From Candidatus Hydrogenedentota bacterium (lineage in GTDB: Bacteria; Hydrogenedentota; Hydrogenedentia; Hydrogenedentales; SLHB01), in contig CAXXTH010000017.1 of NCBI GenBank assembly GCA_963668025.2, positions 1 to 64,000 of the forward strand: a stretch of 64,000 bases of DNA, read 5' to 3'. Positions within the stretch are counted from its first letter, which is position 1. Every line of letters starts with the position of its first letter. The notes below the pieces were generated by a model. The model worked only from the letters and a program-made list of their open reading frames with translations, did no database searches and had not been told where the DNA came from. A program made the position numbers and the translations under genes. Below, piece after piece: positions 1-16,469 of this stretch.

Positions 1-538
1 AGGCCGGCGACGCCGGCACCGATGACGAGCACCCGGGCCGGGCGGATGGTCCCGGCGGCGGTGGTGAGCATCGGGAAAAATTTGGTACAGCGGGCGGCGG
101 CGATCAGGCCGCACTGGTAGCCGGCACAGGCACCTTGCGAGGACAGGGCATCCATGCTCTGGGCGCGCGAGATACGCGGCAGGAGTTCCAGCGAGAAGGC
201 AGTGATCTTGCGGGCGTTCAGGGCGGCCAGGCGTTCCTTCGACTCGAACGGCTTGAGCAGACCGATCAGGATGGAACCTTCGGGCAGCGAAGCAATCTCG
301 CCAAGACTCGGCGGGGTGACGCGGAGAATGAGATCAGCCGCAGCGTAGGCTTCCACCGGACGGGCATGAAATCGACGTCGGTGTAGTCCGAATCGAGAAA
401 ATGACTCTGGATGCCGGAGCTTTGTTCCATGCGGAGTCGGGCGCCGAGAGCGGCAAATTTCTTGGCTGTCTCGGGAGAGAGCGCGGTACGGCTTTCGCCT
501 TCCGCGCTTTCGCGAGCAACCGCCAGGGTCAGCGGCAT
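1..538 (-). CDS. pntA: NAD(P) transhydrogenase subunit alpha (part 1); runs off the left edge, one frameshift near 360
   Basis: N-terminus MPLTLAVARESAEGESRTALSPETAKK; after the shift it reads ...LELLPRISRAQSMDALSSQ...FFPMLTTAAGTIRPARVLVIGAGVAGL (PntA signature and Rossmann GxGxxG). Confidence 0.9.
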
Positions 539-696
539 TGAAGTTCTCCTAGAGGGGTTGATTTGAATATTGCGTGCATCGCTGCCGATAGCTGGGTATC
601 GGTCATTGTTCTATTAATGCGCTTGGGCGAAAGATAAGTGATTTGTTATGACGTGAGTAGTCAGAGTTTCTGATCGTTGATTCAGCAATGCTTTAA

Positions 697-2476
697 CTAT
701 TGGCCATCTGCCATCGTTGTCCCGGCATTGATGAAGCGCAGTTCCTGCGGGTAAGGGAAAAAGTCTTCGACATGGCCGCTGCGGATTTTTTCCTGGGCGC
801 CTTGCCAGAACCTGGGGCTGAGCAAATCCTTGTGATGTTTCATGAAAATCTTGCGGACCTGCGGCGAAGTGAGCAGGAAAGTGGCGAACTCTTCCGGGAA
901 AACGTCGTTTCTGGCGACCGGGGTACCAGATTTCGCCGGACATTTCCGTTTCGAAGTCCGGGGCTGGCGGGGATCTGACGGAAGTTGATGTCGGTCATGT
1001 ATTCGATTTCGTCGTAGTCGTAGAAAACGACCCGGCCGAAACGGGTGACACCGAAATTTTTCCACAGCATGTCACCCGGGAAGATGTTGGCCTGGGCCAT
1101 TTCGCGGATGGCGCTACCGTATTCGCGGATGACGTGTTCCAGCCCTTCGACGTTGTTGGAGCGCTCCATCCGGTCGAGGTGGATATTGAGCGGCTCCATC
1201 CGGCGCTCAATATAGAGGTGTTTGATGATCAACTGGTCGCCATCGACTTCGAAGCAGGAAGGGGCCAGTTGTTGCAGTTCGGCCAGCACCTCGTCGTCGA
1301 AGCGCTTCAACGGGAACAGCACGTTGGAGAACTCCAGCGTATCGGCCATCCGCCCGACACGGTCGACCTGCTTGACCATCATGAATTTCTTTTTGACGGT
1401 GGCGCGGTCCATCTCCTTGGAGCTACCGAAAACGTCCTTGATCAGCTTGAAGACGTAAGGGTAGGACGGCAGCGTGAAGACCAGCATGACCAGGCCGCGG
1501 ATGCCGGCGCCATGATGAATTTATCTTCCGAATGGTGCAGGTGATAAATGAAGTCGCGGAAAGAACATGGTTTTACCCTGCTTGCCAAGGCCGAGCATGA
1601 TGTACAGCTCGGAGCGCGGCTTGGCGGGCAGGATGGAGCGCAGGAACTGCACGTAGCCGGACGGCACTTCCATGTCGACCATGAAATAGGCGCGCGACAG
1701 TGAGAAGAGCAGGCCGATCCGCCAAGCATCGAGCAGTATGGTGTCGAGGTAGAGCTTGGCGTCCTCGTTTTGCAATACCGGATGGCGAAGGGGTATTCGG
1801 CCGCGCCATTGATCGCCTTGCCGATGATGTAGGCGGCCTTGTTGCGATAAAAGGCGGAGCCAAGGACCTGAATCTGGAAATTGACTTCACGGCGCGGCAT
1901 GCCCTTCAGGAAGTCATGAACTGCCTGATAAACGTAGTCGACATCGCGCGCAAGATCGTCAAACGGCCGGTGCCATTGGAAATCCTCGACGATCTTGCGA
2001 ACCGCGCCACGCAGGCCGTCATCCTTGGCGTAATAACTGCGATAGGTCTGGGTCTCGTCACCCTCGATGTTTTCGGTGGAAATGCTCGGCCGAACAAAGA
2101 TGAAATCGTTGTGGAAATAATTGCGGTGCAGGATCTTGGTCGTCACCGAGTGAAGAGGTCTCGGCCAGTTCCGGCTGCTTGTGATTGAGCAGCAGCCCGA
2201 TATAGAGCAGCTTGACCTGCTGCCAGGTAGTGTCGTCGATCGAGGCGGCATCGAACTCGTTGCGCAGGCGCTCGACGCATTCATCGACCCGGTCATCGTA
2301 AAAGCGGATGCGCTCCTTGACGGCCTTGTGCACGCCCAGCCAGTCAGCCTGCTCGAACCGGTTTTCGCTTCACGGCTGGTCTGGCGGAACAGCGTGTAAT
2401 GCTTGTTGAAGCCTGAATCATGGCCAGGGCGATCTGGTGTGCGTTGGTGCCGTAGAGGCCGACGAGGATATTTCAT
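697..2476 (-). CDS. aceK: Isocitrate dehydrogenase kinase/phosphatase, broken by at least 7 frameshifts (probably sequence errors)
   Basis: AceK motifs spread over frames: [98 protein letters not shown]. Confidence 0.93.
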
Positions 2477-2690
2477 GGTCGAAAAGCCTGAGTTCAGCGG
2501 CAAATATTAGCACCAGCGAATAGCGTCGATGTGCATGAATTTGCAGCGAAATCGCATGTGAAAAGGCATTTCGTTGACTGAGATGGAACAGGGGTTGATA
2601 CTCTCAATGTTTTGCTTCAGCAAACCGGTTCACAAAGGGCCGAGCGTTACCCTCGGCTCCAAAAATTCAATCCAACGCAAGGGGATATTC

Positions 2691-4003
2691 ATGGCTGGTG
2701 GAAAGTCGAAAATCATTTACACGCTGACCGATGAGGCGCCGCTGCTGGCGACTTGTGCATTTTTGCCGATCATCCGCACCTTCACCGGTCCGGCCGGCAT
2801 CGAGATCGAAAAGGCCGACATCTCCGTGTCCGCCCGCGTTCTCTCCGAATTCTCCGATTTCCTGACCGACGAGCAGAAGGTTCCCAATACGCTGGGCGAA
2901 CTGGGCAAAAAGTGCCTGCTGCCGGAAACCAATATCATCAAGCTGCCGAATATTTCGGCCTCCGTTGCCCAGCTCAAGGCCTGCGTCAAGAATTGCAGGA
3001 AAAGGGGCTATGCCCATCCCCGATTACCCGGAAACCACCAATACCGACGAAGAGAAAGCCCTCAAGGCCCGCTTCGGCAAGTGCATTGGTTCCGCCGTCA
3101 ATCCGGTGCTGCGCGAAGGTAACTCCGATCGCCGCGCCCCGGGGGCTGTCAAGAATTACGCCAAGAAGCGTCCGCACTCGATGGGTGAATGGAAGCAGTG
3201 GTCGCAGACCCACGTTTCCCACATGGAACACGGTGACTTCTACCACGGCGAAAAGTCGCTGACCCTCGACAAGCCGCGCGAAGTGCGCATGGAACTGATC
3301 GCCAAGGGCGGCAAGACCACCGTATTGAAGCCGAAGCTCTCCCTGCTCGAAGGCGAAATCATCGATTCGATGTTCATGAGCAAGAAGGCGCTCTGCGACT
3401 TCTACGAAGCCCAGCTCGAAGACTGCCGCGAAGCCGGCATCCTCTTCTCGCTGCACGTCAAGGCTACGATGATGAAGGTTTCGCACCCCATCGTCTTCGG
3501 CCACTGCGTCAAGATCTACTACAAGGAAGCCTTCGAAAAGCACGGCAAGACCTTCGACGAGCTCGGCATCAACGTCAATAATGGCATGGTCGATCTGTAC
3601 GAGAAGATCAAGCAGCTGCCGGAATCCAAGCGCGACGAAATCATCCGCGACCTGCACGCCTGTCAGGAACACCGTCCGCGTCTGGCCATGGTCGATTCGG
3701 CCAAGGGCATCACCAACTTCCATTCGCCGAACGACATCATTGTCGACGCTTCCATGCCGGCCATGATCCGTCAGGGCGGCAAGATGTGGGGCGCCGACGG
3801 CAAGCCGTACGACTCCAAGTGCGTCATGCCGGAATCGACCTTCGCCCGCATCTATCAGGAGATGATCAACTTCGTCAAATGGCATGGCAACTTCGATCCG
3901 AAGACCATGGGCACCGTCCCGAACGTCGGTCTGATGGCCCAGCAGGCCGAAGAATACGGCTCGCACGACAAGACCTTCGAAATCACCGAAGCCGGCATCG
4001 TGG
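2691..4003 (+). CDS. icd: Monomeric-type NADP-dependent isocitrate dehydrogenase; frameshift ~3000, truncated at ~4000
   Basis: [81 protein letters not shown]; only ~435 of the usual ~740 aa are present. Confidence 0.93.
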
Positions 4004-5569
4004 GGCGAAGCAGGCCTCGATAGTCCCAGTATCGAGTCGCGATGGGAAGTGTCCGGGCCGCTCGAGATCAATTGCCTTGCATGCCACAACGCCGAGCCTT
4101 CGCAGAATATGACCGAATGGACCATCCAGATCGCCCGCCAGAATTTCCAGTGGGCGGCCACGGCCGCGAGCGGGCTAGGCATCGTGCGCGGAACGGCTTC
4201 CGAGTTGCCGGAGACATACGATCCGTATAACGGCTTGGGCGCGAACAACGAATGGCTGACGGAACCGGGCGTTTCGTACGACGCTTCGAAATTCGATGCG
4301 AAAGGCCGCGTCTTCTTCAATCTCACCCGCGCTGTTCCGAATGAACGCTGCGCGTATTGCCATTCGAGCGCCTGGAATGGGGAAGAGGCGTGGAACACGG
4401 ACCAGGATGTCCATCTCCAGGCGGGCCTGAGCTGCACGGATTGCCACCGCAACGCCCTCGATCACCAAATCACGCGCGGTTATGAAGGCGAAGCCGCCAT
4501 GCGCGGCGGCGCGCCCGCTTCCTTATCCTGCCGGGGCTGCCACCTCGGAGATGAAGCGGACACCTCGTCCAATGGCATGGGCGGGCGGCTCGGCGCGCCG
4601 AAACCCAAGCACCTCGGATTGCCCGCCTTTCACCTTGACCGCTTGTCTTGCACGGCGTGCCATTCAGGCCCGTGGCCTGGTGCGAAAACGGGCGTGATGC
4701 GCACTTCCCGCGCCAACCGGCTCGGTATTCATGGCAAGGCGCAATGGGACACGGAGCTCCCGCGCATCGCCTCGCCGGTCTTCGCCAAGCAAGAGAACGG
4801 CATCATCGAAGCATGCAACATGGTGTGGCCCGCGTTTTGGGGCGTGATGCGCGGCGATAAAATGACTCCACTGCTCCCGGAACAAGTGAAGCCCGTGCTG
4901 GAAGGCGTAATACAGGCGTCCCTCCTAGCGGTGGCGGAGAGCGTCCAAACGGCAGCAGTGGATGCGCCTGCCGCTGCAGAAACACCTGAAACCGAAGCAC
5001 AGGCTGCGCCCGCATCCGAACCTGCCGCGCCCGCACCTGCGCCTGCGCCAAGCCTGGACGAGGCGATGATCGCCCATATGCTTACGGCGTTAAGCCAGCC
5101 GGGGACACTGGATGGAACGCCCGTATATGTAGCTGGGGGCATGCTGTACCAGTTGCGTGATGGCCAGTTGGACGCATCGAGCCATCCCGCCGCACAGCCC
5201 TATTCGTGGCCCCTCAGCCATGACGTACGCCCGGCGTCGCAGGCCCTCGGCAGCGGAGGCTGCACCGATTGCCATGGAGCCGATAGCGGCTTCTTCATGG
5301 GAACGGTCAAGCCCATGCCGCCTGGCGTGATACAAGCCACGTCCGATACGCCCATGTATGCGCTTCAAGGCTCCACGGAGCCGCTCGTGAACGCCTGGAA
5401 CCAGCAGATGGCGTTGCGGCCTTATTACCTGGCGGCGGACGCGCTGGTGTGCATTTTCCTGGCCCTGGGCCTCGCCATATATGGGTACAGGGGAATCGAG
5501 CGCTTCGCGCGTGCGCGAACGGTTCAGGCCGGGGCTCGGTTTTCGGGTTCCGGGTCTCGTAATGAATAG
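4004..5569 (+). CDS. Multiheme c-type cytochrome with C-terminal membrane anchor; N-terminus missing
   Basis: Six CxxCH motifs (CLACH, CAYCH, CTDCH, CRGCH, CTACH, CTDCH), Pro/Ala linker, C-terminal TM helix; frame is open upstream of GTG 4049 with no signal peptide or RBS. Confidence 0.85.
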
Positions 5570-5704
5570 CTGAAATCGACGGATGACCGGCGAGGGCGCC
5601 GGTTATATTTATACTGGGTCATTTCCGCGAAAGGGGATTTCCAAAAAAAAGAATTGGCAAGCCAAAACACGGAAATACTGGTGAAATGCGCCAAAGAGAA
5701 CAAG

Positions 5705-5790
5705 AAAGCGGTAGCAAGCTACCGCACTCCACATGCGCTCTAAGTCTTTTTTTTGAAACTATTTGGAGTGCGGCAGCTTGCTGCCGCTTT
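5705..5790. repeat. Inverted REP pair (REPIN-like)
   Basis: AAAGCGGTAGCAAGCTACCGCACTCCA (5705-5731) and TGGAGTGCGGCAGCTTGCTGCCGCTTT (5764-5790) are near-perfect reverse complements, each an internal palindrome. Confidence 0.75.
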
Positions 5791-6020
5791 GGGCGTGCGG
5801 ATTTCGTTTGGATGCCTGTTTTCGGCTTTACCGCGATGTAGATTCACACAGGGCGCATTTTTGGAAAGCCCCGTTCGCGAAGATGACGATAACGTGCGTT
5901 TGATACGACAATAAAGGATTTTCGCCTTTTGCACACACCCAACGGGTGATCGAACATGACCGCGAACGCGGCGCAGGTATTTGTGCCTATTGTTCGGCGA
6001 TTGGGGAGGAACACAGAGGC

Positions 6021-6755
6021 ATGTTTCGTGAAATAAGCGCCATCATGCTGGCTGCGGCGGTTGCAGCCGTAGTGCTGCATTTTACGCTGTTCAACTGGCG
6101 GCGTCCCAAACCCGCCCTTGGCCCCGCCACGATGCGCCGGTTCAGCCTATGGGAACGCGGCGCGCACTTGCTCTTGATTGCGTCGCTCTTCACAGTAGCG
6201 TTGACCGGATTCATTCCCGTGTTGGGATGGGATGGCCCGCTCAGCGGCTGGTGGCGGCTAGCGCATGTGGCGGCTGGCCTGTTGCTGGGCCTCGCATTCA
6301 TGCCCATGATCACGTTGTGGGCCGCGGATAGCCGTTTTGAACCATATGACATGGGGTGGTTCATGCGGATGGGCGGTTATCTGGGCGGAAAGAACGAACC
6401 GCCTGCGGGCCGGTTCAACGCGGGCCAGAAAGTATTTTTCTGGATGGCGGCGTTGCTCGGGCTCGCCGTGCTGGCCACGGGATTCGTGCGGATGTATCCC
6501 CTCTTCGACGCGGGAATACAAGACATGGTATTGTACGTGCATCGGTATTGCGCGCTGTTGTTCGGCGCGATGATCATCGTGCATGTCTATCTGGGAACGA
6601 TTGCTTCGCCTGGAACACTGCGCAGCATGCTTCTTGGCAAAGTAAGCCCTGAATGGGCGAAACAACACCATCCCATATGGTTTGAACGTGCGCAAATCGC
6701 GCCACCAACAGAAATGGAGCCTTCCCCCGCTTCCATAGGAGATCCTCACTCATGA
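6021..6755 (+). CDS. Formate dehydrogenase gamma-subunit-like (FdnI/FdoI) di-heme cytochrome b
   Basis: RRFSLWERGAH, RLAH, PPAGRFNAGQKVFFW, VH..IVHVYLG, WAKQHHPIWF; RBS GGGGAGGA before ATG 6021. Confidence 0.88.
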   Translation: MFREISAIMLAAAVAAVVLHFTLFNWRRPKPALGPATMRRFSLWERGAHLLLIASLFTVALTGFIPVLGWDGPLSGWWRLAHVAAGLLLGLAFMPMITLWAADSRFEPYDMGWFMRMGGYLGGKNEPPAGRFNAGQKVFFWMAALLGLAVLATGFVRMYPLFDAGIQDMVLYVHRYCALLFGAMIIVHVYLGTIASPGTLRSMLLGKVSPEWAKQHHPIWFERAQIAPPTEMEPSPASIGDPHS

Positions 6756-7465
6756 AACACGCATGCTATCTAGCCGCCATCCTGTTCTTGTTCGCCGCCG
6801 CATCCGCCATGGCGCAAGATGCCGCCGCGCCGGCTGCACCGCAGGCCGCCGCCCCCGCCGCCCAGGAACAACTCGCCCCCGTCAAAATCGCCTTGCCAAA
6901 GCCCATGTTCATCGGCACGCCGAAGAACATCGCATCGGATAATCTGGAGGAGCCCACCGGCAAGCCGCGCGAACCGTTCATGGCCCCCGTGGGAACCACG
7001 AACGTGGCGCTGAACAAACCGGTGACGGCCAGCGACACGGAACCCGTTATCGGCGAACCGGCGCTCATCACGGACGGCGATAAAGATGGAAGCGATGGCT
7101 GCTTCATCGAATTCGGCCCGGGCACGCAATGGATTCAAATCGATTTGGGCGCGCCTTGCTCCCTGTACGCCATCGTCTTGTGGCATTATCATTCCCAAGC
7201 GCGGGTATACCACGATGTCGTGCTCCAGGCTGCCGATGACGACAAGTTCACGCAAAATGTCCGCACGCTCTTCAATAACGACCACGACAACTCTTCGAGC
7301 CTTGGCGCAGGCAAGGACAAGGAATATGTCGAGACCTACGAGGGCAAACTGGTGGACGCCAAAGGGGCGAAGGCCCGGTATATCCGCTTGTACAGCAAAG
7401 GCAACACCTCGGACGATTTGAACCACTACGTGGAGGTGGAGGCTTACGGAAAGCTTGCGGAATAG
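6752..7465 (+). CDS. Secreted discoidin (F5/8 type C)-domain protein
   Basis: Sec signal peptide, NVALNKPVTAS, TDGD, WIQIDLG, ARYIRLYS, YVEVEAYG; ATGA overlap with the upstream stop. Confidence 0.8.
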   Translation: MKHACYLAAILFLFAAASAMAQDAAAPAAPQAAAPAAQEQLAPVKIALPKPMFIGTPKNIASDNLEEPTGKPREPFMAPVGTTNVALNKPVTASDTEPVIGEPALITDGDKDGSDGCFIEFGPGTQWIQIDLGAPCSLYAIVLWHYHSQARVYHDVVLQAADDDKFTQNVRTLFNNDHDNSSSLGAGKDKEYVETYEGKLVDAKGAKARYIRLYSKGNTSDDLNHYVEVEAYGKLAE

Positions 7466-8999
7466 GCCTTCCGCTCGTTTTCACGGAGCGCTGTTGGCCG
7501 TTGCGGTATTCGCCCTCGTGTCACGGCTGCCCGCTCTCCGGGAGCGACCGATGCACTGCGATGAAGCCGTGCATGCCGTCAAGACCGGGATGTTGATGGA
7601 GTCTGGGGTCTATACGTATGACCCCAGCGATTACCACGGCCCAACGCTCTATTACTGCGCCCTGCCTATCGCATGGCTCCAGGGCGCGCGCACCTTCGCG
7701 GAAACGAATGAAACCACTTTTCGCCTCGTGCCGGTTATCTTCGGCGCGGGGCTGATTCTTTTAGCGGTGGGCCTGGCCGATGGCATCGGAAAATCCGCCG
7801 TGCTTGCATCCGCCGTGCTCGCGGCGGTTTCACCCGCCATGACGTACTATGGACGCTACTATATCCAGGAAATGCTACTCGTCTTTTTCACGTTCGCGGC
7901 CATCGTGTCAGGCTGGCGCTATGCACGGACGCCGTCTTGGAGATGGGCCATCGCGGCGGGCGTTTTTCTCGGGCTTTCCCATGCCACAAAAGAGACTTGT
8001 GTGCTCACCTGGGCGGCCATGCTGGGCGGGATCATATTGACCAAGCTCTGGCTTCACCACCGGGGGGAACCGTGGAACTGGCGCAGTGGAATTCAACGAA
8101 AACATGTATTCGCGGCGCTGGCGGCCTTGCTGCTGGTTTCGGCGGCATGCATGTCTATGTGCTTCACCCAGCCGCGCGGCATCTTGGATTCGTGGCTCAC
8201 GTATGCCCATTATTTCCAGCGCGCCGGGGGCGCGGGAATGCATGACAAGCCTTGGTATTATTACCTGCAATTGGTGCTATATACGCACAACGCCCCCGGA
8301 CCGTGGTGGAGCGAGGGATTCATCGTAGCGCTCGCGGGAATTGGAATTTCGGCTGGGCTCAGGCGAACAGCGGCGCAACCCTTATGGTGTTTCTTGGCCT
8401 TTTATGCCATGCTGCTTCTACTGTTCTATTCGCTCATTCCGTATAAAACGCCTTGGTGCGTACTAGGGCCGCTCCATGCTCTTATCATACTAGCGGGCGT
8501 GGGGTGTGCCGTATTGTTCCAACTCACCCGGCGGACGTGGCTCAGGGCCGTATTGGCGTTGCTGCTTGGTATCAGTGTATGGAATCTCAGCCAGCAGGCG
8601 CACCGCGCCGCGTTTCAATTCGCCAGCGATCCACGCAATCCGTATGTATATGCCCATACCTCGCCGGATGCGGCGCATCTCGCGGAGCGTGTGCTCAAAC
8701 TCGCCCGCATGCATCCAGATGGCCTGGATACACGGGTCAATGTGATTGCGCCAGAGTATTGGCCGCTGCCTTGGTATTTCCGCACACTGCGTGCTACAGG
8801 GTATTGGAACGCCGTACCGGAAACGCCCGATGCGCCAATTCTCATCACCAGCCCCGATTTCACGGCGGAATTAGACGATCATCTGATCCACCAGTATCAA
8901 AAAAGCTACTATGGATTGCGTCCCGGCGTTCTGCTCGTGTTGTATGTCGAGGAGAATTTGTGGAACGCCTTTCTGGAACGCCAGGAGGCGGCTACGTGA
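7455..8999 (+). CDS. TIGR03663/Agl23-like GT-C membrane glycosyltransferase
   Basis: RPMHCDEAVHA, YDPSDYHGPTLYY, RYYIQE, HATKE, HDKPWYYY, YKTPW, NPYVYAHT, YWPLPWY; many TM helices. Confidence 0.82.
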   Translation: MRNRPSARFHGALLAVAVFALVSRLPALRERPMHCDEAVHAVKTGMLMESGVYTYDPSDYHGPTLYYCALPIAWLQGARTFAETNETTFRLVPVIFGAGLILLAVGLADGIGKSAVLASAVLAAVSPAMTYYGRYYIQEMLLVFFTFAAIVSGWRYARTPSWRWAIAAGVFLGLSHATKETCVLTWAAMLGGIILTKLWLHHRGEPWNWRSGIQRKHVFAALAALLLVSAACMSMCFTQPRGILDSWLTYAHYFQRAGGAGMHDKPWYYYLQLVLYTHNAPGPWWSEGFIVALAGIGISAGLRRTAAQPLWCFLAFYAMLLLLFYSLIPYKTPWCVLGPLHALIILAGVGCAVLFQLTRRTWLRAVLALLLGISVWNLSQQAHRAAFQFASDPRNPYVYAHTSPDAAHLAERVLKLARMHPDGLDTRVNVIAPEYWPLPWYFRTLRATGYWNAVPETPDAPILITSPDFTAELDDHLIHQYQKSYYGLRPGVLLVLYVEENLWNAFLERQEAAT

Positions 9000-9856
9000 C
9001 ACAGGCGGACGACTCGAAAGGCGATGCCATCGCCCGGTTCACCCACGACGTGATGTCCACCACGTTTCAAGTGCATATCGCGGGCGAATCCCAGGCGTAT
9101 GCACGATCCGCCGCCACGGAGGTCTTTCGGCTCTGGGACCGGCTGGAAGGATTGCTCAGCCGTTTCGTCGAGTATAGCGACATCTCACGCATCAACCGCC
9201 TGCGGTGCGGCGAGGCCGCACGCGTGGGCATCGAGGCCTTCACCTGCCTGCAAACCGCCGCCGCCATGGCCACGGAAACCGGCGGCGCATTTGACGCCGC
9301 CATTGGAAGCCTGACCAAGGGCGGCAGAGGAAACGGGGCAGACGCCGCCGTAGGCATGCATTATGTCGCGCTGGATGAATCGGCCTTCACTGTGCGGATA
9401 TTAGCGGAGGGCATCGAACTCGACCTAGGCGGCATCGGCAAAGGATTCGCCCTGGATCAGGCCGCTGCCCTGCTCGACGAATGGGGTGTGGATTCCGCTT
9501 TGCTCTGTGCAAGCGAAAGCACCGTGCTCGCGCTGGGAGCGCCGCCGTGCCAGCAAGGCTGGCGGGTGGGGATCGGCGGACAACCAGCTTGGCTCACTCA
9601 CCGGGCATTGAGCGGCTCGGGCGTGGCGGTGAAAGGCGGACATATCATAGACCCGCACACGCGCCAGCCCGTTCAGGATAAAGCCGCCGCATGGGCGGCT
9701 TGCACCAGCGCCACCGAAGCGGACGCCTTATCGACGGCGTTCATGGTGATGCCGCCTGGCCGGATTAAAACATATTGCCGCGCCCACCCGGAAGTGAGCG
9801 CGGCAATACAGATATCAGAAGGCGGTGTATTCACTTATTTTGGCCGCCCATTTTAG
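8996..9856 (+). CDS. apbE: FAD:protein FMN transferase (ApbE family)
   Basis: MSTTF, SDISRIN, GAFDAAIGSL, LDLGGIGKGFALD, HIIDPHT, ADALSTAFMVM; GTG start overlaps the upstream TGA. Confidence 0.9.
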   Translation: MTQADDSKGDAIARFTHDVMSTTFQVHIAGESQAYARSAATEVFRLWDRLEGLLSRFVEYSDISRINRLRCGEAARVGIEAFTCLQTAAAMATETGGAFDAAIGSLTKGGRGNGADAAVGMHYVALDESAFTVRILAEGIELDLGGIGKGFALDQAAALLDEWGVDSALLCASESTVLALGAPPCQQGWRVGIGGQPAWLTHRALSGSGVAVKGGHIIDPHTRQPVQDKAAAWAACTSATEADALSTAFMVMPPGRIKTYCRAHPEVSAAIQISEGGVFTYFGRPF

Positions 9857-10026
9857 TTGCCGCTCCGCATGCCTATGGGGCATACCCGCGAAAGCGAGGC
9901 CCCAAAAGAAACGCCCTGGATTCCCGCTATCGCGGAAATGACAGAGCGTTCGTACATTAAGTAATATGCGACGCCTTACATCAATTGCTCAAAAAACATG
10001 GCTCCCGTATTCTGTTCCCGTTTTAT

Positions 10027-11466
10027 TCATTCCGCCGCGTCAAGCGGCTTGATTTTCATATTGCGGAACTGGACAGGCATGCCGTGGTATTGGAATCCAA
10101 CAAATCCCGTACGCGCCATGTCTTTGTAGGCCGTGTTGAATTTATTCGCCGTGCCATCGGGATTCTTATGGGCTTCCGTCCATAAATCGAGATTCATGTC
10201 CGTGGCCTGTTCCCCGTTCAAGAACACCAGAATCCGGCTACCCTTCGCGATAATGACATAGCGGTTCCACTCGCCCGGTGCTTTCACCAAGCGCTTGGCG
10301 GGTGCGAGGCAATCGAAAATGCCGCCGCAATTTTCGCGTGTATTGGCCGCCTCAGGTTGTAGAATCTGCACCTCGATGGACGTTTGCAGCCATTCCACGG
10401 TATCGGTGCAGCGCAAAAACACGCCGCTGTTGGTCTCGGATTCACAACGGAATTCCAGATCGAGCACGAAATCGCCATACTGCTCCTTCGTCCAGATGTC
10501 GCCGCCGCCTTTTGCGGCCAGCACGCCATCCTCGTAGGACCAGCTATCTTTCGAGCAAACCGCGTTTTTGAGATTGGATTGAAACAGCGGTTTATATCCC
10601 TTCTCCGCCAGCGCCGTGGCTACGAGGCGGTAATAATCGACGCTTTGTTGAATCTCCGGCATGGATTCGAGCCAGTTGTATTCGTACTCGATGCTGAACA
10701 GGCCTTTGAACTCCTGGCGCTTCAGTTCGGCAAGCAGGCCGTATACGTTACAGGAGCCCGTGCCCCAGGGGACATCATGGGGCTCCGCGCCAGAGGTTAT
10801 GTCTTTGAAATGGAGGCTGATCACCCGGCCTTCGAGCTTGCGCAGGCATTCGAGGGGATCAAGGCCCGAGCGCAGCCAATGCCCGTCATCGACGCACGCG
10901 CCGATGCGCTTGCTCCGCCCCTTCACGGCATCCAGGAACGTATCCGGACTCCAGTAGAAGGATGGTTTCGGATGGTTATGGACGGCCAGGTTGACGCCAT
11001 ACTCTTCGCATAACGCCTCCATGAGATCCATTTCTTCTGGTTTAGGCTCCGAGGAAATCGAGGAGATCCCGAGGGACTTCGCGAATTCGAAGATCTGCCG
11101 CCATTCGGCTTCATTCGAGCCACCGACTACGCCGTATGCCGCGAGTTTCACTCCGGCGCTCTTTAACTTATCCGCTACCTTTTGCCGGGTATCGGCATCC
11201 ATCGTATGCAAGAACTTGGCATCGCTGCCGTTCTCGATGCGCTGGCCCGGGAAAGCTTCGATGTAACCAAGGCCGAGAGCTTTTGTTTTGTCAACAGCTT
11301 CAAAGAACGTGAACTCCTTGAAGCTCCATGCTTGAGCGCCCAGCTTCCAGCCAAGCTGCTCTTCGGGCGGGCCCGCCGCTTGTGCTGCGGCCGTTCCTGT
11401 GAACACGCCAAAGCCTATCATCGCAATGGCGCATCCCCGCATGAAAATACTCAGGCGTATCTTCAT
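10027..11466 (-). CDS. Secreted sugar phosphate isomerase/epimerase (AP-endonuclease-2 TIM barrel) fused to DUF1080
   Basis: Signal peptide; AVHNH, DDGHW, LHFKD, IEYE TIM-barrel motifs; C-terminal YGDFVLDLEF, NSGVFLR, EVQIL, GEWN, GFQYHG..VQFRNMKI; RBS AGGAGG. Confidence 0.85.
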   Translation of the reverse strand: MKIRLSIFMRGCAIAMIGFGVFTGTAAAQAAGPPEEQLGWKLGAQAWSFKEFTFFEAVDKTKALGLGYIEAFPGQRIENGSDAKFLHTMDADTRQKVADKLKSAGVKLAAYGVVGGSNEAEWRQIFEFAKSLGISSISSEPKPEEMDLMEALCEEYGVNLAVHNHPKPSFYWSPDTFLDAVKGRSKRIGACVDDGHWLRSGLDPLECLRKLEGRVISLHFKDITSGAEPHDVPWGTGSCNVYGLLAELKRQEFKGLFSIEYEYNWLESMPEIQQSVDYYRLVATALAEKGYKPLFQSNLKNAVCSKDSWSYEDGVLAAKGGGDIWTKEQYGDFVLDLEFRCESETNSGVFLRCTDTVEWLQTSIEVQILQPEAANTRENCGGIFDCLAPAKRLVKAPGEWNRYVIIAKGSRILVFLNGEQATDMNLDLWTEAHKNPDGTANKFNTAYKDMARTGFVGFQYHGMPVQFRNMKIKPLDAAE

Positions 11467-11509
11467 GGCAAACGCCTCCTTTCTAACCGCTCACCAAGGA
11501 GCGTAGTGG

Positions 11510-12487
11510 TTATTTGTCAAGTGGTTTGACCCAGATATTTTTGTACTGGACCGGATCGCCGTGGTTCTGGAGATGCAGTGGGCCAACGGGCGCTTCATCC
11601 GGGCTCACGCCGCCGGGGGTGACATGGGGCAGCACGACATTGTCATGAATCAGCACGCCATTGTGGCGTACGGATATCAGCGCATCCTTTGTTTTTTTGC
11701 CTTGCGCATCGAATTGTGGTGCGTGAAACGTGATGTCATACGTTTGCCATTCATCGGGCGGCAGGCAGGCGTTCACTTTCGGCGTGGCAAGCTGGTAGAT
11801 GCCGCCGCACAGGTTATCCGCAGGCTCATCGCCGAAGCTATCGAGCACTTGGATCTCATAACGCCCCGCCAGATACACGCCGCTGTTCCCTCGAGCTTGG
11901 CCGCCGAGCCAGGGCATATAAGGCGTACAGAATTCGACATGGATTTCCGCGCTGCCGAATTCTTGTTTGCTATAGAATTGGCCGCCTCCGATGACAATCC
12001 TTCCATCCTGGATCATGCCATAGTTCCAGGCATCAAGGTTCGTGCCATCAAACAAGACAATAGCACCCTCCGGCGGAGCCGCATTCAAGGTGGGCGGGAT
12101 TTTTCGCACCTGTTTCATCTCGAACGCGGCTTCTTCTCCCGCTTCGCCTTTGGCTGGCTTCAACGTCCCAGAGAAGACGCCATCCGCAATCCGGCCCGAC
12201 ACGGCATACACGCCCGCCAATTTGCCTTCCAGGGTAATCTCCCCGGAAATAGCGGCTGTTTTGTTGTCCTGTTTCCCTTGGAGTTCGCCTTTGGCTCGAG
12301 TGCCGTCCACTTCAAACAGAATGCGGTAGGCGTTATCGGGCATTCCGATAATTTTGGCCGCTAACGCAGTGTTTTCCCATCCTTTGGCTTCGGCCGCGCC
12401 TTCCCAATTGCCCATGATGGGATCAGCGGAAGCCGAGGCTGCCACGAGCAACAGAACACAACCTATTATGCTTATTATGCGATGCAT
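11510..12487 (-). CDS. Secreted DUF1080 (3-keto-glycoside hydratase-like) protein
   Basis: Signal peptide; PPEGAIVLFDG, HVEF, RGNSGVYL..RYEIQVLDS, WQTYDI, LQNHGDPVQYKNIW. Confidence 0.88.
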   Translation of the reverse strand: MHRIISIIGCVLLLVAASASADPIMGNWEGAAEAKGWENTALAAKIIGMPDNAYRILFEVDGTRAKGELQGKQDNKTAAISGEITLEGKLAGVYAVSGRIADGVFSGTLKPAKGEAGEEAAFEMKQVRKIPPTLNAAPPEGAIVLFDGTNLDAWNYGMIQDGRIVIGGGQFYSKQEFGSAEIHVEFCTPYMPWLGGQARGNSGVYLAGRYEIQVLDSFGDEPADNLCGGIYQLATPKVNACLPPDEWQTYDITFHAPQFDAQGKKTKDALISVRHNGVLIHDNVVLPHVTPGGVSPDEAPVGPLHLQNHGDPVQYKNIWVKPLDK

Positions 12488-12493
12488 GGATTC

Positions 12494-13867
12494 TTACCTC
12501 CCCGGATTCAGTTTTTTTGCGCCCGGAATGTTCCAGCCTTTCCGGTATTCACGGATCAGGAAACGATTGGCTTCGGGAGCATTCGTAACCTTCATCGCGG
12601 CGTCGTCCCATTCGATTTTGCGTCCCGCGCGCAGGGCCACGGTTCCGAGAATCACCATTTCGGTCAAGGGCACGGAATACTCGAAATTCGAGCAGGCGGG
12701 CTGCCCGGTCAGGCAAGCGTTGAGCCAGTCTTTATACACGCCGCCCACACGAGGGATATACGGCTCGGGCGCATTGAGCGTTTTTTGCTCCGATTCCGGG
12801 AGAAGCCGGGGTTCGCCGCCGTAGCAGCCACACGTCAGCACGCCTTTTGTTCCGACAAAAAACGAGCCATTAGCGCCATCGCCTAGCTTGGCGTCGCCGA
12901 TGCCCGCCGGGCGTTCGGGCAAAATACCGCCATCGTACCAATACAGGCTTACCGGAGGCAGTGTTTTGTCTTTCCATTGGCGCTCGGGGAAATTATACCG
13001 GATGACGGATTTGGCGGGGGCGGTCATTTCGTTGCCGCCTTCTTTTTGCAGGCATTCCACGGATTGGGGAGCGCCCAGATGCAGCGCCCAAAATGCGGGA
13101 TCGATGATATGGCAGCCCATGTCACCAAGCGCGCCTGTGCCGAAATCCCACCATGCCCGCCAAGCGAATGGGCAATACGCTTTGTTATAGGGGCGCGCTT
13201 GGGCTGTGCCCAGCCACAGATCCCAGTCCAGCGTTTCCGGCACGGGCTCGGCAGGCCATGGGCCGGAGAGGTTTTGCGGCCAGATGGGCCGGTCGGACCA
13301 GCAATGGACTTCCTTAATGTCGCCAATCACCCCGGCCCAGATGACTTCGCACAAGGCGCGCACATCATCGGCGGAATGGCCCTGGTTGCCCATTTGCGTG
13401 GCGACCCGGTGTTTGCGCGCCGCTGCACGCAGCATGCGGGCTTCATAGATGGTGACTGTCAACGGCTTTTGGACATACACATGCTTGCCCTTGGCCATGG
13501 CATACAACGCTGCGGGGGCATGCGTGTGATCCGGCGTCGAGACCATGACCGCGTCGATGTCTGTCTCGTTATCAAGCATCTCGCGGAAGTCGGTGTAATG
13601 AGGCACTTGCGGATACCAGTCAAAAGCCTCGGAGCCCATCCGGGCATCGACATCGCACAAGGCGGCAATCACGGCGCCGTCGCGTTCGACTCCCACCACG
13701 TCATTTTTTCCCATGCCGCCGCATCCGATGGAGGCCACCCGGACAGGGCCAGCGCTTTTCTTGACTAGAATGTTTGGCCCCGCGCTCCTCGTGAGGGTCG
13801 AGCATCCGCCCAGCGTAATCAGGCTTCCCAGCAGAAATCCGCGTCTTGTGAGGTTTTTATCCATCAT
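12494..13867 (-). CDS. Tat-exported Gfo/Idh/MocA oxidoreductase
   Basis: TRRGFL twin-arginine signal, IGCGGMG, STPDHTH, HVYVQKP, QMGNQGHS, WDFGTGALGDMGCHIID. Confidence 0.92.
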   Translation of the reverse strand: MMDKNLTRRGFLLGSLITLGGCSTLTRSAGPNILVKKSAGPVRVASIGCGGMGKNDVVGVERDGAVIAALCDVDARMGSEAFDWYPQVPHYTDFREMLDNETDIDAVMVSTPDHTHAPAALYAMAKGKHVYVQKPLTVTIYEARMLRAAARKHRVATQMGNQGHSADDVRALCEVIWAGVIGDIKEVHCWSDRPIWPQNLSGPWPAEPVPETLDWDLWLGTAQARPYNKAYCPFAWRAWWDFGTGALGDMGCHIIDPAFWALHLGAPQSVECLQKEGGNEMTAPAKSVIRYNFPERQWKDKTLPPVSLYWYDGGILPERPAGIGDAKLGDGANGSFFVGTKGVLTCGCYGGEPRLLPESEQKTLNAPEPYIPRVGGVYKDWLNACLTGQPACSNFEYSVPLTEMVILGTVALRAGRKIEWDDAAMKVTNAPEANRFLIREYRKGWNIPGAKKLNPGR

Positions 13868-13911
13868 GAATTTCCTTCCCTACATAGCGCAACCCCAGCG
13901 CCGTGCAATTG

Positions 13912-13941
13912 GCATCTTCGTTGCATGATCAACGAAGATGC
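13912..13941. promoter_or_regulatory. Perfect 12-bp inverted repeat (operator or hairpin) upstream of the Gfo/DUF1080 operon
   Basis: GCATCTTCGTTG-CATGAT-CAACGAAGATGC with no U-tract. Confidence 0.5.
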
Positions 13942-14019
13942 TTGCTACCTAGAAACGTTCTCTCTGTAAAAACGTTTTATGCATTCAGGCCAGGGCGCAG
14001 GACGCCACGGCCGGTATTG

Positions 14020-16212
14020 CTATGTGTAGTTGCGCGGGGTTATTTCTTTGAATGGGGCCAGCCCCATTTCCAAACGTTCCACCAGCGCACAAGCGGGCTC
14101 CCCCTGTTCTATACCCAAACGCACCGCTTGGGTTCCCGCTAATGTGTCAAACCAGCCAGGACGCTCGAAAAGGAAATCTTTGGGGTGTATTTGCCGCATG
14201 GCGGCGATAAGCGCCACGGCCATGCGGAATGGCCGGGCGGAGATGGGATCGGTGATATGAATGCGCACGCCCTGGCAGGAGGTATCTTCGTAGCGGGGAT
14301 GTGCGGCCTTGCCTGGCATGCTTATGGGGGTGAACGTAGCGGCCTCCAGGCGGAATCCCTGGATATCTGGGGCCGCCAAGGCCGAGATGACACGCGCGGC
14401 ATCGAGCCACGGCGCGCCCACAAGCTCGAAAGGCGCTTCGGTGCCGCGCCCCTCGCTCACGTTCGTACCTTCGAATAGACAGGTTCCTACGTATACGAGG
14501 GCCGTATCGGGCGTGGGAATGTTGGGAGATGGCGGAATCCAAGGCAGGCCGCATTGCCCAAACAAACGCGCCCGGGGCCATTTATCGAGGGCGTTAATCG
14601 AGAGTTCGAGGCGTTTTCCAGGCCCGGCGGAAGCCGCGAACAATGTGGCGATTTCGCCCATGGTCAGGCCATGGCGCACCGGCACGGCTCCCCAGCAAAC
14701 AGGCGAATCGGTTTTTTCCGCGATAGGCCCTTCCATGATTTCGCCGCCGATGGGATTGGGCCGGTCGAGCACGAGGACTGGCGTCCCCGCTTCACGGCAC
14801 GCTTCCATGCAGTCTTTCATCGTTGAGGCATAAGTGTAATAACGTGAGCCTATGTCTTGCAGGTCGATAACGAAGTAATCGATCCCGCTCAGTTCCTCAG
14901 CGGATGGCTTTTTGCGTTTCCCCATCAAACTGATAATAGGTGCGCCGCCCTGTTCAGATGGCACGGCTTCGCCTGCCTCGGCTTGTCCCCGCAGGCCATG
15001 CTCGGGGCTGTAGATATAGCGGAGCTGCACCTCTGGCGCTAAAGCGAACACGTCGGAAATGGGGCGTCCCAGTTGATCCACGGCGGCGTGGTGCGTCAGC
15101 AGCGCGGCGCGCTTGTTACGCAACGGCTTAAAATCTTCGTACATCAGCCGGTCGAGGCCGCTATGGGTTGAAGAGGCGTCCGGGTAGTATTGTTTGGCTA
15201 TGGCGTCGAAAAAGGTGCGCCGAAGCACGCCGCCATTCGCCGCGCTGCGTGTGGGATGGCAGGTGTTGCTGAGTAAAATGGCGAAGAAGCCGCGCTTGCG
15301 GTCCATCCAGAGGCAGGAGCCCGTGAATCCGGGGTGGCCGAACGCTTCCCGGGCGGGAAGATAGCCTGCGGAACTCGACGCCCATGGATCCAGCGCCCAG
15401 CCCAGGCCTTGCCAAGGATAAACAGGCGCCTGGCCCAAGCGCAGCGCTTCATCAAGGGTTTGTTCGCGCAAGAGTTTTCCACCCAACAGGCCCCGGCAAA
15501 ACCGGGCCAAGTCCTCCGCCGTGGAAAACAGCCCCGCATGGCCTGACACGCCCCCCACCGCATACGCATTTTCATCATGCGGTTCGCCGCGAAGCAGCTT
15601 GTTTCGCCAGGGGCATTGTTCGGTGGGCGCACAACGCGAGGCGCGCCCGGCGGGCGGATTATAACCCGTGTCTTTCATGCCCAGCGGTTCGAAGATCTGC
15701 TTGGCGCAAAACGCATCGAGCCGGTCGCTGGCCGCCATCTCGAGCACGCGGCCCAGAATCATGAATCCGAGATCAGAATATTGCCGCCGTGTTCCGGGGG
15801 GGTAACGCAGCTCTTCCTGAGCGATCAGTTGAAGCGCTTCCGTCATGCTGGATGCCTGTTTGTACAGCGGAATCCATGCGGGAAGCCCCGCCGTGTGGGT
15901 GAGCAATTGCCGTACGGAGATGGCTTGAAAAGCTGGAACCGGCACATACTCCGCCACCGGTTTATCTAGAACAAGCTGTCTGTTTTCATACAACAGCAAT
16001 GCGGCAGTCGTCGTAGCGACAGCCTTAGAGACCGACGCAAGATCGTAAATGGTGTCCTTTGTGGCCGGCTCGGATGTTGGCGTGGACTGCCGTAGCCCAG
16101 CCGCTTCAAAAAATTCACATGCTTCAATCGTGCCGACATAGGCCACCGCCCCAGGGGCATGCGATTCCGCAACGGCATCCGCCAGCGCGCTTGAAAGCGT
16201 ATCCTGCGCCAT
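14020..16212 (-). CDS. Beta-lactamase-family serine hydrolase fused to NamZ/DUF1343 exo-beta-N-acetylmuramidase
   Basis: DLASVSK (SxxK), LLTHTAG, YSDLG, GHAGLFST, GHPGFTG; then SPEHG, DLQDIGSRYYTY, VLDRPNP, RHGLTMGE, PSPNIP, SEGRGT. Confidence 0.9.
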   Translation of the reverse strand: MAQDTLSSALADAVAESHAPGAVAYVGTIEACEFFEAAGLRQSTPTSEPATKDTIYDLASVSKAVATTTAALLLYENRQLVLDKPVAEYVPVPAFQAISVRQLLTHTAGLPAWIPLYKQASSMTEALQLIAQEELRYPPGTRRQYSDLGFMILGRVLEMAASDRLDAFCAKQIFEPLGMKDTGYNPPAGRASRCAPTEQCPWRNKLLRGEPHDENAYAVGGVSGHAGLFSTAEDLARFCRGLLGGKLLREQTLDEALRLGQAPVYPWQGLGWALDPWASSSAGYLPAREAFGHPGFTGSCLWMDRKRGFFAILLSNTCHPTRSAANGGVLRRTFFDAIAKQYYPDASSTHSGLDRLMYEDFKPLRNKRAALLTHHAAVDQLGRPISDVFALAPEVQLRYIYSPEHGLRGQAEAGEAVPSEQGGAPIISLMGKRKKPSAEELSGIDYFVIDLQDIGSRYYTYASTMKDCMEACREAGTPVLVLDRPNPIGGEIMEGPIAEKTDSPVCWGAVPVRHGLTMGEIATLFAASAGPGKRLELSINALDKWPRARLFGQCGLPWIPPSPNIPTPDTALVYVGTCLFEGTNVSEGRGTEAPFELVGAPWLDAARVISALAAPDIQGFRLEAATFTPISMPGKAAHPRYEDTSCQGVRIHITDPISARPFRMAVALIAAMRQIHPKDFLFERPGWFDTLAGTQAVRLGIEQGEPACALVERLEMGLAPFKEITPRNYT

Positions 16213-16469
16213 CCGCTCCCTCCAGTAACTATTCCACTTGAACGCAGTGGAACCCACGCGGCGTCATGCCGCGGAGAAAGTGTAAAGCGCATGCTTCAAG
16301 ATCGCAAGAAAGACATGGCGCCATTTGGCGGCATACCGCCTTCCGCGCATGCTATGCGCATGGCGCCATCCCCTTCCTTCCCCTGCCAGCCTGCCATTGG
16401 GAGAGCGCGGCTGTCGCGTAATAGACTGGCGGACAGTCCGGTTGGGCCATTCCCGCCATCCAAATAACG

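Follow-up and report, generated by a model that had tools for sequence, protein, structure and literature searches.

Introduction

The respiratory enzymes FdnGHI and HyaABC are, as is generally known, built from a catalytic subunit exported by the twin-arginine translocation (Tat) pathway, which is a molybdenum bis(pyranopterin guanine dinucleotide) (Mo-bisPGD) or NiFe protein, from a C-terminally anchored wire with 4x[4Fe-4S], and from a dihaem cytochrome b of the FdnI/HyaC type; FdnI-type cytochromes b can work in either direction. For periplasmic sugar oxidation, the gamma-alpha-beta glucose dehydrogenase that depends on flavin adenine dinucleotide (FAD) is said to use a haem c subunit and a 3Fe-4S cluster. 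Planctomycetota, Verrucomicrobiota, Bacteroidota and other, related glycan degraders possess hugely expanded sets of periplasmic Tat-exported oxidoreductases of the Gfo/Idh/MocA type (GFO), among them GH109-like enzymes, DgpA and the AL3/BT2158 3-dehydrogenases. Here we analyze a block of five genes at positions 4004-9856 of a window of 64,000 nt (the whole stretch of DNA that was analysed, taken from the start of contig CAXXTH010000017.1 of a Candidatus Hydrogenedentota bacterium, assembly GCA_963668025.2). The block encodes a multihaem cytochrome c (MHC), a cytochrome b, a discoidin-like protein, a GT-C glycosyltransferase and ApbE. We consider it rather probable that bases 4001-9856 are the distal part of a six-gene operon for a sugar dehydrogenase:quinone oxidoreductase that is wired like FdnGHI.

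Judging from the genes, the full operon is predicted to encode a Tat-GFO, a heptahaem MHC with a C-terminal anchor, an FdnI-type cytochrome b, a CBM32-like protein, a TIGR03663 GT-C enzyme and a signal-less ApbE. It shares with FdnGHI and HyaABC the Tat catalytic subunit, the anchored wire and the cytochrome b, and because of this architecture its core is read as a periplasmic glycoside dehydrogenase:quinone oxidoreductase. It differs from them in that the catalytic subunit is a GFO that uses nicotinamide adenine dinucleotide (NAD), the wire is a heptahaem cytochrome c, and ApbE, the CBM32-like protein and the GT-C enzyme are added.

The 3-ketoglycoside dehydrogenases LacABC and ThuAB belong to another enzyme class and depend on cytochrome c. 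They resemble the operon in that glycosides are oxidised in the periplasm, that the electrons enter a haem c subunit and from there the respiratory chain, and that genes for 3-keto-glycoside lyase and DUF1080 proteins lie next to them (PMC8121099). These two systems and the FAD glucose dehydrogenase have FAD catalysts of the GMC or ThuB type, whereas the operon has a Tat-GFO with presumably non-exchangeable NAD, and its cytochrome is a heptahaem protein similar to octahaem tetrathionate reductase (OTR) and followed by a cytochrome b. The enzymes AL3/BT2158 and DgpA belong to the same superfamily as the operon GFO, carry a Tat signal, are expected to bind NAD tightly and have lyase/DUF1080 genes nearby. 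However, according to 10.1101/2024.03.25.586180 they are thought to be redox-neutral and recycled by reducing the 3-keto product, whereas the operon GFO gene is coupled to those of cytochromes c and b and ApbE. According to the same work, periplasmic Tat-GFO 3-dehydrogenases retain a non-exchangeable NAD, and its re-oxidation by a cytochrome was suggested by the authors but not found.

The operon and its recurrence

The block consists of the following open reading frames (ORFs):

4049-5569, + strand: MHC (coding part from 4001)
5946/6021-6755, + strand: cytochrome b, 244 aa, with the likely start Met at 6021
6752-7465, + strand: discoidin/CBM32-like protein (PF00754, PF22633)
7455-8999, + strand: GT-C glycosyltransferase (TIGR03663)
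8996-9856, + strand: ApbE (PF02424)

The cytochrome b and discoidin genes overlap in an ATGA (6752-6755), the discoidin and GT-C genes by 11 nt (7455-7465), and the GT-C and ApbE genes in a GTGA (8996-8999). An earlier note, made from the letters of this DNA, had described five co-oriented genes, the last four of them overlapping, and the ORFs, overlaps and family scores all agree with it. It had also remarked that no molybdopterin, hydrogenase or Fe-S subunit stands beside the cytochrome b, and the Pfam scan of the block proteins found no such gene.

To describe the neighborhood in close relatives, we used a set of 41 related genomes, which includes the genome of the window (G000; 6.1 Mb, 24 contigs, completeness 93.75%), and called MHC orthologues close at E <= 1e-100. 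Such orthologues were present in nine other genomes of the set, while 20 of the 41 genomes gave no MHC match at all. Eight close loci were compared: four have the genes of MHC, cytochrome b, discoidin, GT-C and ApbE in the order of the window, two are cut by contig ends and two are without some members locally. In all eight a GFO-like match lies directly upstream of MHC. All six upstream GFOs that were read as ORFs contain an Ala/Pro linker and a Tat motif with RR, and four of these six genes have a stop that overlaps the MHC start.

A wider pattern scan, with one genome per species, yielded 291 candidate stretches, of which 218 encode an MHC relative; the counts below refer to the best 80 of these 218 MHC loci, in which six-frame ORFs were scored with phmmer and a hidden Markov model. 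By their record titles, some of which are probably mislabelled, the 80 loci belong to Hydrogenedentes/-ota, Verrucomicrobiota, Planctomycetota (Pirellulales, Phycisphaerae, Sedimentisphaerales), Aminicenantes/Acidobacteriota, Omnitrophota and others. The recurrence of the gene set is far beyond chance, and the earlier expectation of a conserved neighborhood was borne out in these many phyla. A formate dehydrogenase or hydrogenase upstream, which would have made the system an ordinary one, was not what we found: an operon-type GFO lies directly upstream of MHC in 67 of the 68 loci with at least 1400 nt of upstream sequence, and in the 68th (L062) the GFO is also present and was missed by the distance rule. 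No FdnG/FdnH partners accompany the cytochrome b, which therefore does not belong to a formate dehydrogenase-N. With the same query, the operon-type GFO scores 350-1100 bits and other GFO paralogues score 25-160 bits; the operon type is a distinct subfamily. Downstream of MHC, a cytochrome b-like ORF follows in 65/68 loci, is in the same frame as MHC in two and is absent in one. The 49 loci with at least 7 kb of downstream sequence include 39 with ApbE, 37 with discoidin and 35 with GT-C; 33 of them have all three. The genes stand in two orders, MHC-(b)-ApbE-discoidin-GT-C (26 loci) and MHC-(b)-discoidin-GT-C-ApbE (15 loci).

Pfam scans of the upstream genes of two loci, L017 and L019, detected no molybdopterin, Fe-S or hydrogenase family; these genes encode more Tat-GFOs, xylose-isomerase-like TIM barrels and giant ThuA/HEAT/discoidin proteins. 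The latter (L017:3657-6857 and L019:1362-3797) are large secreted proteins with ThuA, HEAT repeats and a C-terminal F5/8-C domain, and constitute another discoidin-bearing class tied to periplasmic sugar oxidation genes. An MHC profile searched against 1.84 billion proteins retrieved 523 representatives of 50%-identity clusters at E <= 1e-30, and the names in the protein atlas were 'hypothetical protein' or generic cytochrome and F5/8-C clusters only.

Eleven of the related genomes had weak MHC matches only, in frames of ~560-1230 aa, most of them >1070 aa. All five of these loci that we examined (L118-L122) contain a paralogous cluster, in which ApbE and a Tat-GFO are accompanied by a fusion of an octahaem MHC with Ni_hydr_CYTB (1070-1193 aa), for example:

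L118:5751-11654: paralogous cluster with an MHC-cytochrome b fusion

The paralogous ApbE has a hydrophobic N-terminal signal in four of the five loci and is fused to a membrane region in the fifth. The C-terminal fusion supports the view that MHC and cytochrome b act as one unit, and since ApbE recurs in the paralogous cluster, it is tied to the GFO/cytochrome core. The gene content thus supports a predicted core of ApbE, GFO, MHC and cytochrome b.

The predicted catalytic subunit

The operon GFO has the PF01408 domain, the GxGxxG and EK motifs and a twin-arginine signal. Across 71 sequences the RR of this signal is conserved (the motif reads SRRGFL on contig C19 of G000), and in the alignment the GxGxxG, an acidic residue after strand 2, the EK and a D..H are invariant or nearly so. 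The best matches in the PDB were DgpA (4e-20), 1,5-anhydrofructose reductase and Zymomonas GFOR (1e-15), so the nearest solved proteins are sugar enzymes with a tightly bound cofactor. Three conserved Cys of the GFO were considered as Fe-S ligands and dropped, as Cys444 is absent in the paralogous GFO.

The presence of this gene changes how the block is read. The earlier note had proposed an electron conduit from quinone to periplasm; its identification of the genes holds, but a bare conduit does not, as the catalytic Tat-GFO gene was lost at a junction near the contig start. The flow of electrons is likely the reverse, from periplasm to quinone.

Cytochromes

The window holds the 3' three quarters of the MHC gene, with six CxxCH motifs versus seven in full-length relatives. 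It is without the first ~150-165 residues, which in all relatives comprise the signal peptide and the haem-1 domain; what is left has haems 2-7, an Ala/Pro low-complexity linker, a C-terminal one-haem domain and a membrane helix. The protein scores 43.1 bits with PF14522, and no NCBIfam model reaches its cut-off. An alignment of 68 MHC sequences has seven CxxCH and seven other His as invariant positions, but not a single invariant Lys. As the seven CxxCH are matched by seven other His and no Lys, seven bis-His haems may be expected, which suggests that the MHC is an all bis-His electron wire.

The AF2 model of a full-length MHC (locus L024) had a predicted local distance difference test score (pLDDT) of 83 and a predicted template modelling score (pTM) of 0.81, with a disordered linker and a C-terminal helix at 641-688. 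A Foldseek search of this model against the PDB gave no match at E <= 0.001, and a sequence search of the PDB gave 0 matches at E <= 0.01. In an exhaustive structural alignment, the Shewanella octahaem cytochrome 1sp3 was on top (Z 9.3, root-mean-square deviation 4.4 A, 285 residues aligned, 18% identity), and the next rows, at Z 5.0, aligned the terminal helix only. We also predicted, from alignments, whether GFO (L024, domain at residues 70-478) and the six-haem domain of MHC (28-460) form a complex; the scores were 0.51, 0.38 and 0.38, versus 0.24, 0.00 and 0.00 for the controls, and we counted this result neither for nor against binding.

The match to 1sp3, an OTR, opens another possibility, namely that the MHC is itself the catalyst: an OTR-like reductase of tetrathionate, nitrite, hydroxylamine or another small oxidant, fed with quinol via the cytochrome b, with the GFO as an alternative donor or an accessory. 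We regard this as unlikely. It would agree with 1sp3 being the sole fold above background, with the eight CxxCH of the paralogous MHC, as in OTR, with a weak match to TIGR04315 (the OTR family) and with the ability of FdnI-type cytochromes b, mentioned above, to run in both directions. However, the TIGR04315 score, 22.4 bits, is far under the cut-off of 375, and the seven haem motifs with seven invariant His and no invariant Lys do not suggest an open or Lys-ligated haem, while the catalytic haem of OTR is, as we assume, Lys-ligated. The operon MHC further differs from OTR in its linker, its C-terminal membrane anchor and its cytochrome b partner or fusion. A reductase would also leave the near-universal coupling to a Tat-GFO unexplained.

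The cytochrome b scores 121.7 bits with TIGR01583 (cut-off 115.85) and 68.9 with PF01292 (cut-off 30.1), above both cut-offs. Its 244 residues include His 20, 49, 82, 174 and 188, of which His 20 is in an extra N-terminal helix, and 174 and 188 are 14 apart in one helix. The FdnI ligand pattern, which we take to be four His in transmembrane helices with two of them ~14 apart in the last, fits this protein, and it is predicted to be an FdnI-type dihaem, quinone-reactive membrane subunit. For the re-oxidation of quinol, G000 encodes a cytochrome bd oxidase (G000:C9:62249-63589); a haem-copper oxidase was not found in this genome, with the completeness given above.

A multihaem wire with a long flexible linker could also serve as an extracytoplasmic outlet, through which electrons from sugar oxidation or from quinol would leave via the MHC to soluble or extracellular acceptors. 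In agreement with this, the record titles name Aminicenantes, Sedimentisphaerales and Omnitrophota, and these groups are known as anaerobes. On the other hand, the AF2 model has the MHC held in the inner membrane by its C-terminal helix, a quinone-type cytochrome b follows the MHC gene almost throughout or is fused to it, and the loci inspected showed neither a porin nor an outer-membrane cytochrome as a partner. Such an outlet seems to us quite improbable, and quinone reduction via the cytochrome b is preferred.

ApbE and the proposed flavin step

The described ApbE systems (NQR, RNF, NosR, PplA/extracellular electron transfer, DUF2271, DUF3570; PMC8238504) are similar to the operon in having a dedicated ApbE in a redox operon; they differ in that the operon is without FMN_bind, DUF2271, DUF3570 or an [S/T]GA[S/T] motif, and that its ApbE carries no signal. 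This paper, the 2021 flavinylation survey by Meheust et al., states that genes without a signal peptide or lipidation site were removed, so the operon ApbE would not be covered by it (PMC8238504).

The ApbE of the window is a clear member of PF02424 (135.7 bits) and has no signal peptide; for this and the other proteins, signal peptides were assessed from hydropathy and visual inspection. Its GGIGKG, HIIDP and DALSTA align to the flavin transferase of T. pallidum (4xdt/4ifu), and the GG(I/V)xKG, H(I/L)IDP and DAxxT segments, which we take to be catalytic-region motifs, are conserved in 48 ApbE orthologues. Between the first Met and the domain lie 5-30 residues, which does not speak for an extracytosolic location with a signal peptide or lipobox, as in characterised ApbEs, and no hydrophobic N-terminus (15-residue window, mean hydropathy >1.8) was detected in 43 of the 48 ApbE ORFs with the domain start located. 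As a second, distant ApbE is encoded in G000 (C8:39226-40065, E 1.3e-13 to the operon ApbE), the operon ApbE is a dedicated extra copy.

The earlier note saw no clear [S/T]GA[S/T] target, and we confirm this: none is present in the window MHC and none is conserved in any protein of the cluster across the 80 loci. The Pfam scan detected no FMN_bind, DUF2271, DUF3570 or NqrB/RnfD-like substrate domain in the cluster proteins, and a hunt for conserved Ser/Thr in the alignments of GFO, MHC, cytochrome b and discoidin gave no convincing flavin site. The MHC segment WAATAAS, similar to [ST]-[AG]-A-[ST], was rejected as its Thr/Ser are only 60-80% conserved, and so was Ser64 of MHC, which is invariant but in an unrelated context. 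We also abandoned a role for ApbE as a redox subunit that would dock on the cytochrome b from the cytoplasm, because the paralogous ApbE carries a signal peptide.

Discoidin and glycosyltransferase

The discoidin protein is small and secreted. Besides its signal peptide and an F5/8-C jelly roll, it has an Ala/Pro linker and a conserved LPKPMFVGTPKNI segment. It scores just above the cut-off with PF00754 (29.3 bits, cut-off 28.2; marginal) and above it with PF22633 (30.1, cut-off 27.8). Its AF2 model (pLDDT 85) gave 258 Foldseek matches in the PDB at E <= 0.001, the best at 2.2e-8, among them CBM32 modules and fucolectins. The modelled fold is thus CBM32-like, with putative carbohydrate binding. 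The GT-C protein matches TIGR03663 with 193.5 bits (cut-off 126.25), as well as PF02366 (57.9) and PF13231 (38). Its translation contains N-terminal DE and HGP motifs (HCDEAVH and DYHGPTLYY), presumably the family motifs of TIGR03663, which bears the name 'Agl23'. By family it is a PMT/ArnT-like membrane glycosyltransferase with putative transfer activity. No paper naming TIGR03663 was found in our literature search; the titles listed for Agl23 were on plant genes, except for one paper on Rft1 and the flipping of lipid-linked oligosaccharides (PMC11182771).

These two proteins had been counted as parts of the system. They are indeed often co-located with the cytochromes, but orthologues of both are present in 40 of the 41 related genomes, and in 7/7 loci examined away from cytochromes the pair was adjacent amid varied neighbors. 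Being near-universal and found apart from cytochromes, the pair is a separable module, accessory rather than core. In the pairs at L111-L117 (also G039:C1:2686863-2692785), two to four tandem discoidin paralogues often precede it, and the contexts include GT2, sugar epimerase, sulfotransferase and SecDF genes. Lectin-like domains occur in PMT and Emb enzymes. By analogy, the GT-C protein may be a transferase of lipid-linked sugars whose lectin subunit, the CBM32-like protein, is encoded in trans, and the operon has often recruited the two. The pair would perhaps glycosylate or anchor the complex, or act on its surroundings.

One could instead put the GT-C enzyme at the center and regard the locus as one for building or remodelling an envelope glycan, in which the GFO would catalyze a DprE1-like step with electrons going to quinone, the GT-C enzyme would transfer the sugar and the CBM32-like protein would bind the product. 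GT-C enzymes use polyprenyl-phosphate sugars, which would suit such a role; the GT-C and discoidin genes lie beside the cytochromes in 33-37 of the 49 loci, in two orders, and a GT2 gene adjoins the stand-alone pair in L112. However, the 40 genomes with the pair include the 20/41 without an MHC match and others with the paralogous cluster only, the pair also stands in unrelated contexts, and the paralogous ApbE/GFO/MHC-cytochrome b cluster does without it. Moreover, discoidin is absent in 12/49 loci and GT-C in 14/49, and catabolic genes, 3-keto-glycoside lyase and DUF1080, are frequent neighbors. We therefore judge a glycan-building function to be improbable and retain the sugar dehydrogenase, with the pair as its accessory.

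The contig start and the missing head of the operon

To examine why the operon has no head in the window, we aligned contigs of four public runs (X1, X3, X4 and X5) to window positions 2000-7000. The first part of the window was found to be foreign:

1-4000, no strand assigned: chimeric start, foreign DNA with minus-strand fragments and a broken isocitrate dehydrogenase (IDH) gene

The minus-strand fragments were read by eye as aceK, a label given without a family search. The gene of monomeric IDH (2709-4002, + strand) is frameshifted and limited to the 5' 58%; two frames of it match PF03971 (734 positions), one at 1-112 and the other at 102-431, its homology stops at 4002, and its 3' half was not found in the G000 contigs. 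In runs X1 and X3 the read depth is 800-1800 over 2000-4003 versus 4-40 from 4004 on, a 20- to 400-fold ratio across the junction, and runs X4 and X5 contain the IDH side only (the X5 contig has 3606 nt and a depth of 1610). On the IDH side, the contigs of all four runs go beyond base 4000 with a sequence that differs from the window and keeps the IDH reading frame (30 letters, read by eye). From the other side, an X1 contig of 3044 nt matches 4001-5720 and then extends for 1324 nt further upstream, unlike the window. The first 4 kb of the window differ from the short-read contigs by at least 12 indels, and no contig among those listed bridges base 4000. Because of the depth jump, the diverging contigs, the indels and the split IDH gene, bases 1-4000 are DNA of another, far more abundant organism, and the contig start is chimeric.

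The junction suspected in the earlier note is consequently a real cut, at 4000/4001, but an assembly chimera and not biology, and it is the reason why the operon head is missing here. We looked for it elsewhere in the genome. The minus strand of G000:C19:1-567 (locus L110) encodes the first 189 residues of a GFO and runs off the contig end. This fragment is 55% identical to the gene preceding the cytochrome c in relatives, scores 71.6 bits with PF01408, and its translation contains a twin-arginine VSRRGFL and a GAGAQG. From the relatives, a gap of ~280 GFO codons and ~150 MHC codons, ~1.3 kb, is predicted, and the 1324-nt extension of the X1 contig agrees with it. Contigs C19 and C17 (from base 4001) are thus probably neighbors, ~1.3 kb apart. 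The N-terminal 173 residues of MHC were not found in G000; that part falls in the unassembled gap. Recovery of the upstream contig, as had been proposed, was accordingly successful for the 5' end of GFO and left the ~1.3 kb between.

We also considered a true strain rearrangement at 4000/4001, with the operon as a decaying remnant. The assembly as given contains the junction, and the query used did not retrieve the 5' end of MHC from any other place in G000 (at the stated completeness). Against this stand the absence of a bridging contig among those listed, the difference in depth, the one-sided runs X4 and X5, the other sequence into which the X1 contig extends the MHC side, the position of the GFO 5' end at a contig end, and the intact state of the four downstream genes. 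A rearrangement is very improbable in our view. Genes from 14 kb onward look intact as well (Pfam scan, 18 ORFs). The chimeric first 4 kb matter to users of this metagenome-assembled genome, and we advise trimming them.

Repeat between the cytochrome genes and neighboring genes

The genes of MHC and cytochrome b are separated by ~450 nt in the window and by ~20 nt in relatives. The long spacer exists because a repeat similar to repetitive extragenic palindromes (REP) or miniature inverted-repeat transposable elements (MITE) is inserted there:

5618-5887, no strand assigned: palindromic REP/MITE-like repeat between the MHC and cytochrome b genes

Its arms are nested, with 5705-5734/5761-5790 inside 5618-5647/5858-5887, and blastn detected ~30-38 partial copies in G000, chiefly on C17 and C10. 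The public-run contigs display a depth spike and alternative joints at 5700-5810, and alternative inserts of 31-32 nt between the repeat arms. A scan of window positions 1-14000 with Rfam gathering thresholds gave no match. The scan of 5500-10200 for promoters and terminators returned weak consensus matches only, including a hairpin at 5583-5606 directly after the MHC stop. In the RNA runs X16-X21, 0.14-0.17 of the sampled words were present.

Three convergent genes, all with products exported by N-terminal signals, follow the operon:

10027-11466, - strand: xylose-isomerase-like TIM barrel fused to DUF1080 (Pfam), export signal
11510-12487, - strand: DUF1080 protein (Pfam), export signal
12494-13867, - strand: Tat-lipoprotein GFO oxidoreductase (Pfam), Tat signal

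According to 10.1101/2024.03.25.586180, TIM-barrel, DUF1080 and GFO proteins are enzyme families of the 3-keto-glycoside pathway. A strong match (at least 100 bits) to the TIM-barrel/DUF1080 fusion protein of the window was found within 4 kb upstream of MHC in 16 of the 55 loci with at least 5 kb of upstream sequence. Further on, at 14020-16257 (- strand), a 745-aa protein combines a beta-lactamase fold with the NamZ N- and C-terminal domains (exo-beta-N-acetylmuramidase).

Proposed mechanism and significance

We propose that the GFO would fold around NAD in the cytoplasm, be exported by Tat and oxidise a hydroxyl of a periplasmic sugar or glycoside, most likely at C3. The hydride of the bound NADH would then pass, probably by way of a covalent flavin mononucleotide (FMN) attached by ApbE, to the bis-His haem chain of MHC, and the electrons would go on to the two b haems and reduce quinone at the cytoplasmic face. 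A redox loop generating a proton-motive force (pmf) would be possible, with the quinol re-oxidised by the cytochrome bd of the genome. Haems take up one electron at a time and cannot be fed directly from a hydride carrier. The obvious adaptor between the two is a flavin, which gives ApbE a role. The operon ApbE is predicted to be cytoplasmic and the paralogous ApbE exported; only the GFO, folded before export, would be accessible to both, so the GFO is favored as the flavinylated protein. With no canonical motif, its flavinylation is the weakest step of the mechanism.

Several observations weigh against this proposal. The direction of electron flow is one that we infer, and many of the host lineages are groups named as anaerobes, for which a quinone sink is less obvious. 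ApbE is absent within 9 kb in 10/49 loci, and ApbE, discoidin and GT-C are all absent in 7/49. The operon ApbE is without a signal and the paralogous one with it, which fits a GFO target by inference alone. The relaxed motif [ST]G[AS][ST] occurs, in places that do not align, in 0/52 discoidin, 2/85 GFO, 1/43 cytochrome b and 11/81 MHC ORFs. The MHC fold resembles a catalytic octahaem reductase, and the MHC might itself be an enzyme. Finally, we know of no precedent for direct transfer from NADH to haem without a flavin.

The combination was regarded as uncharacterised in the earlier note. In agreement with this, our search of the literature on GFO with cytochrome, multihaem, ApbE, Tat or Planctomycetes found no description of it. 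The module of dehydrogenase, wire and cytochrome b is known; a GFO as its catalytic subunit and the accessory set would be unprecedented, and the proposed mechanism appears plausible. A more far-reaching possibility, which we put forward tentatively and with some doubt, is that the operon represents an undescribed class of respiratory dehydrogenase, with a Tat-exported, NAD-loaded GFO acting as a sugar 3-dehydrogenase, an FMN bound covalently at a non-canonical site (in the operon type by the cytoplasmic ApbE, before export), an OTR-derived heptahaem MHC, an FdnI-type cytochrome b, a pmf loop driven by glycoside oxidation in the periplasm, and the GT-C and lectin-like proteins as dedicated maturation factors.

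How the NAD of periplasmic GFOs is re-oxidised in vivo is a question raised by the authors of 10.1101/2024.03.25.586180, and the operon offers a testable answer to it. If the proposal is true, it would provide the long-sought route for re-oxidising the non-exchangeable NAD of these enzymes, and a new entry of sugar electrons into the respiratory chains of abundant uncultured lineages. ApbE would gain a new kind of substrate, in what would be the first ApbE flavinylation of a Tat substrate in the cytoplasm, and the uncharacterised bacterial TIGR03663 GT-C family would acquire a functional context.

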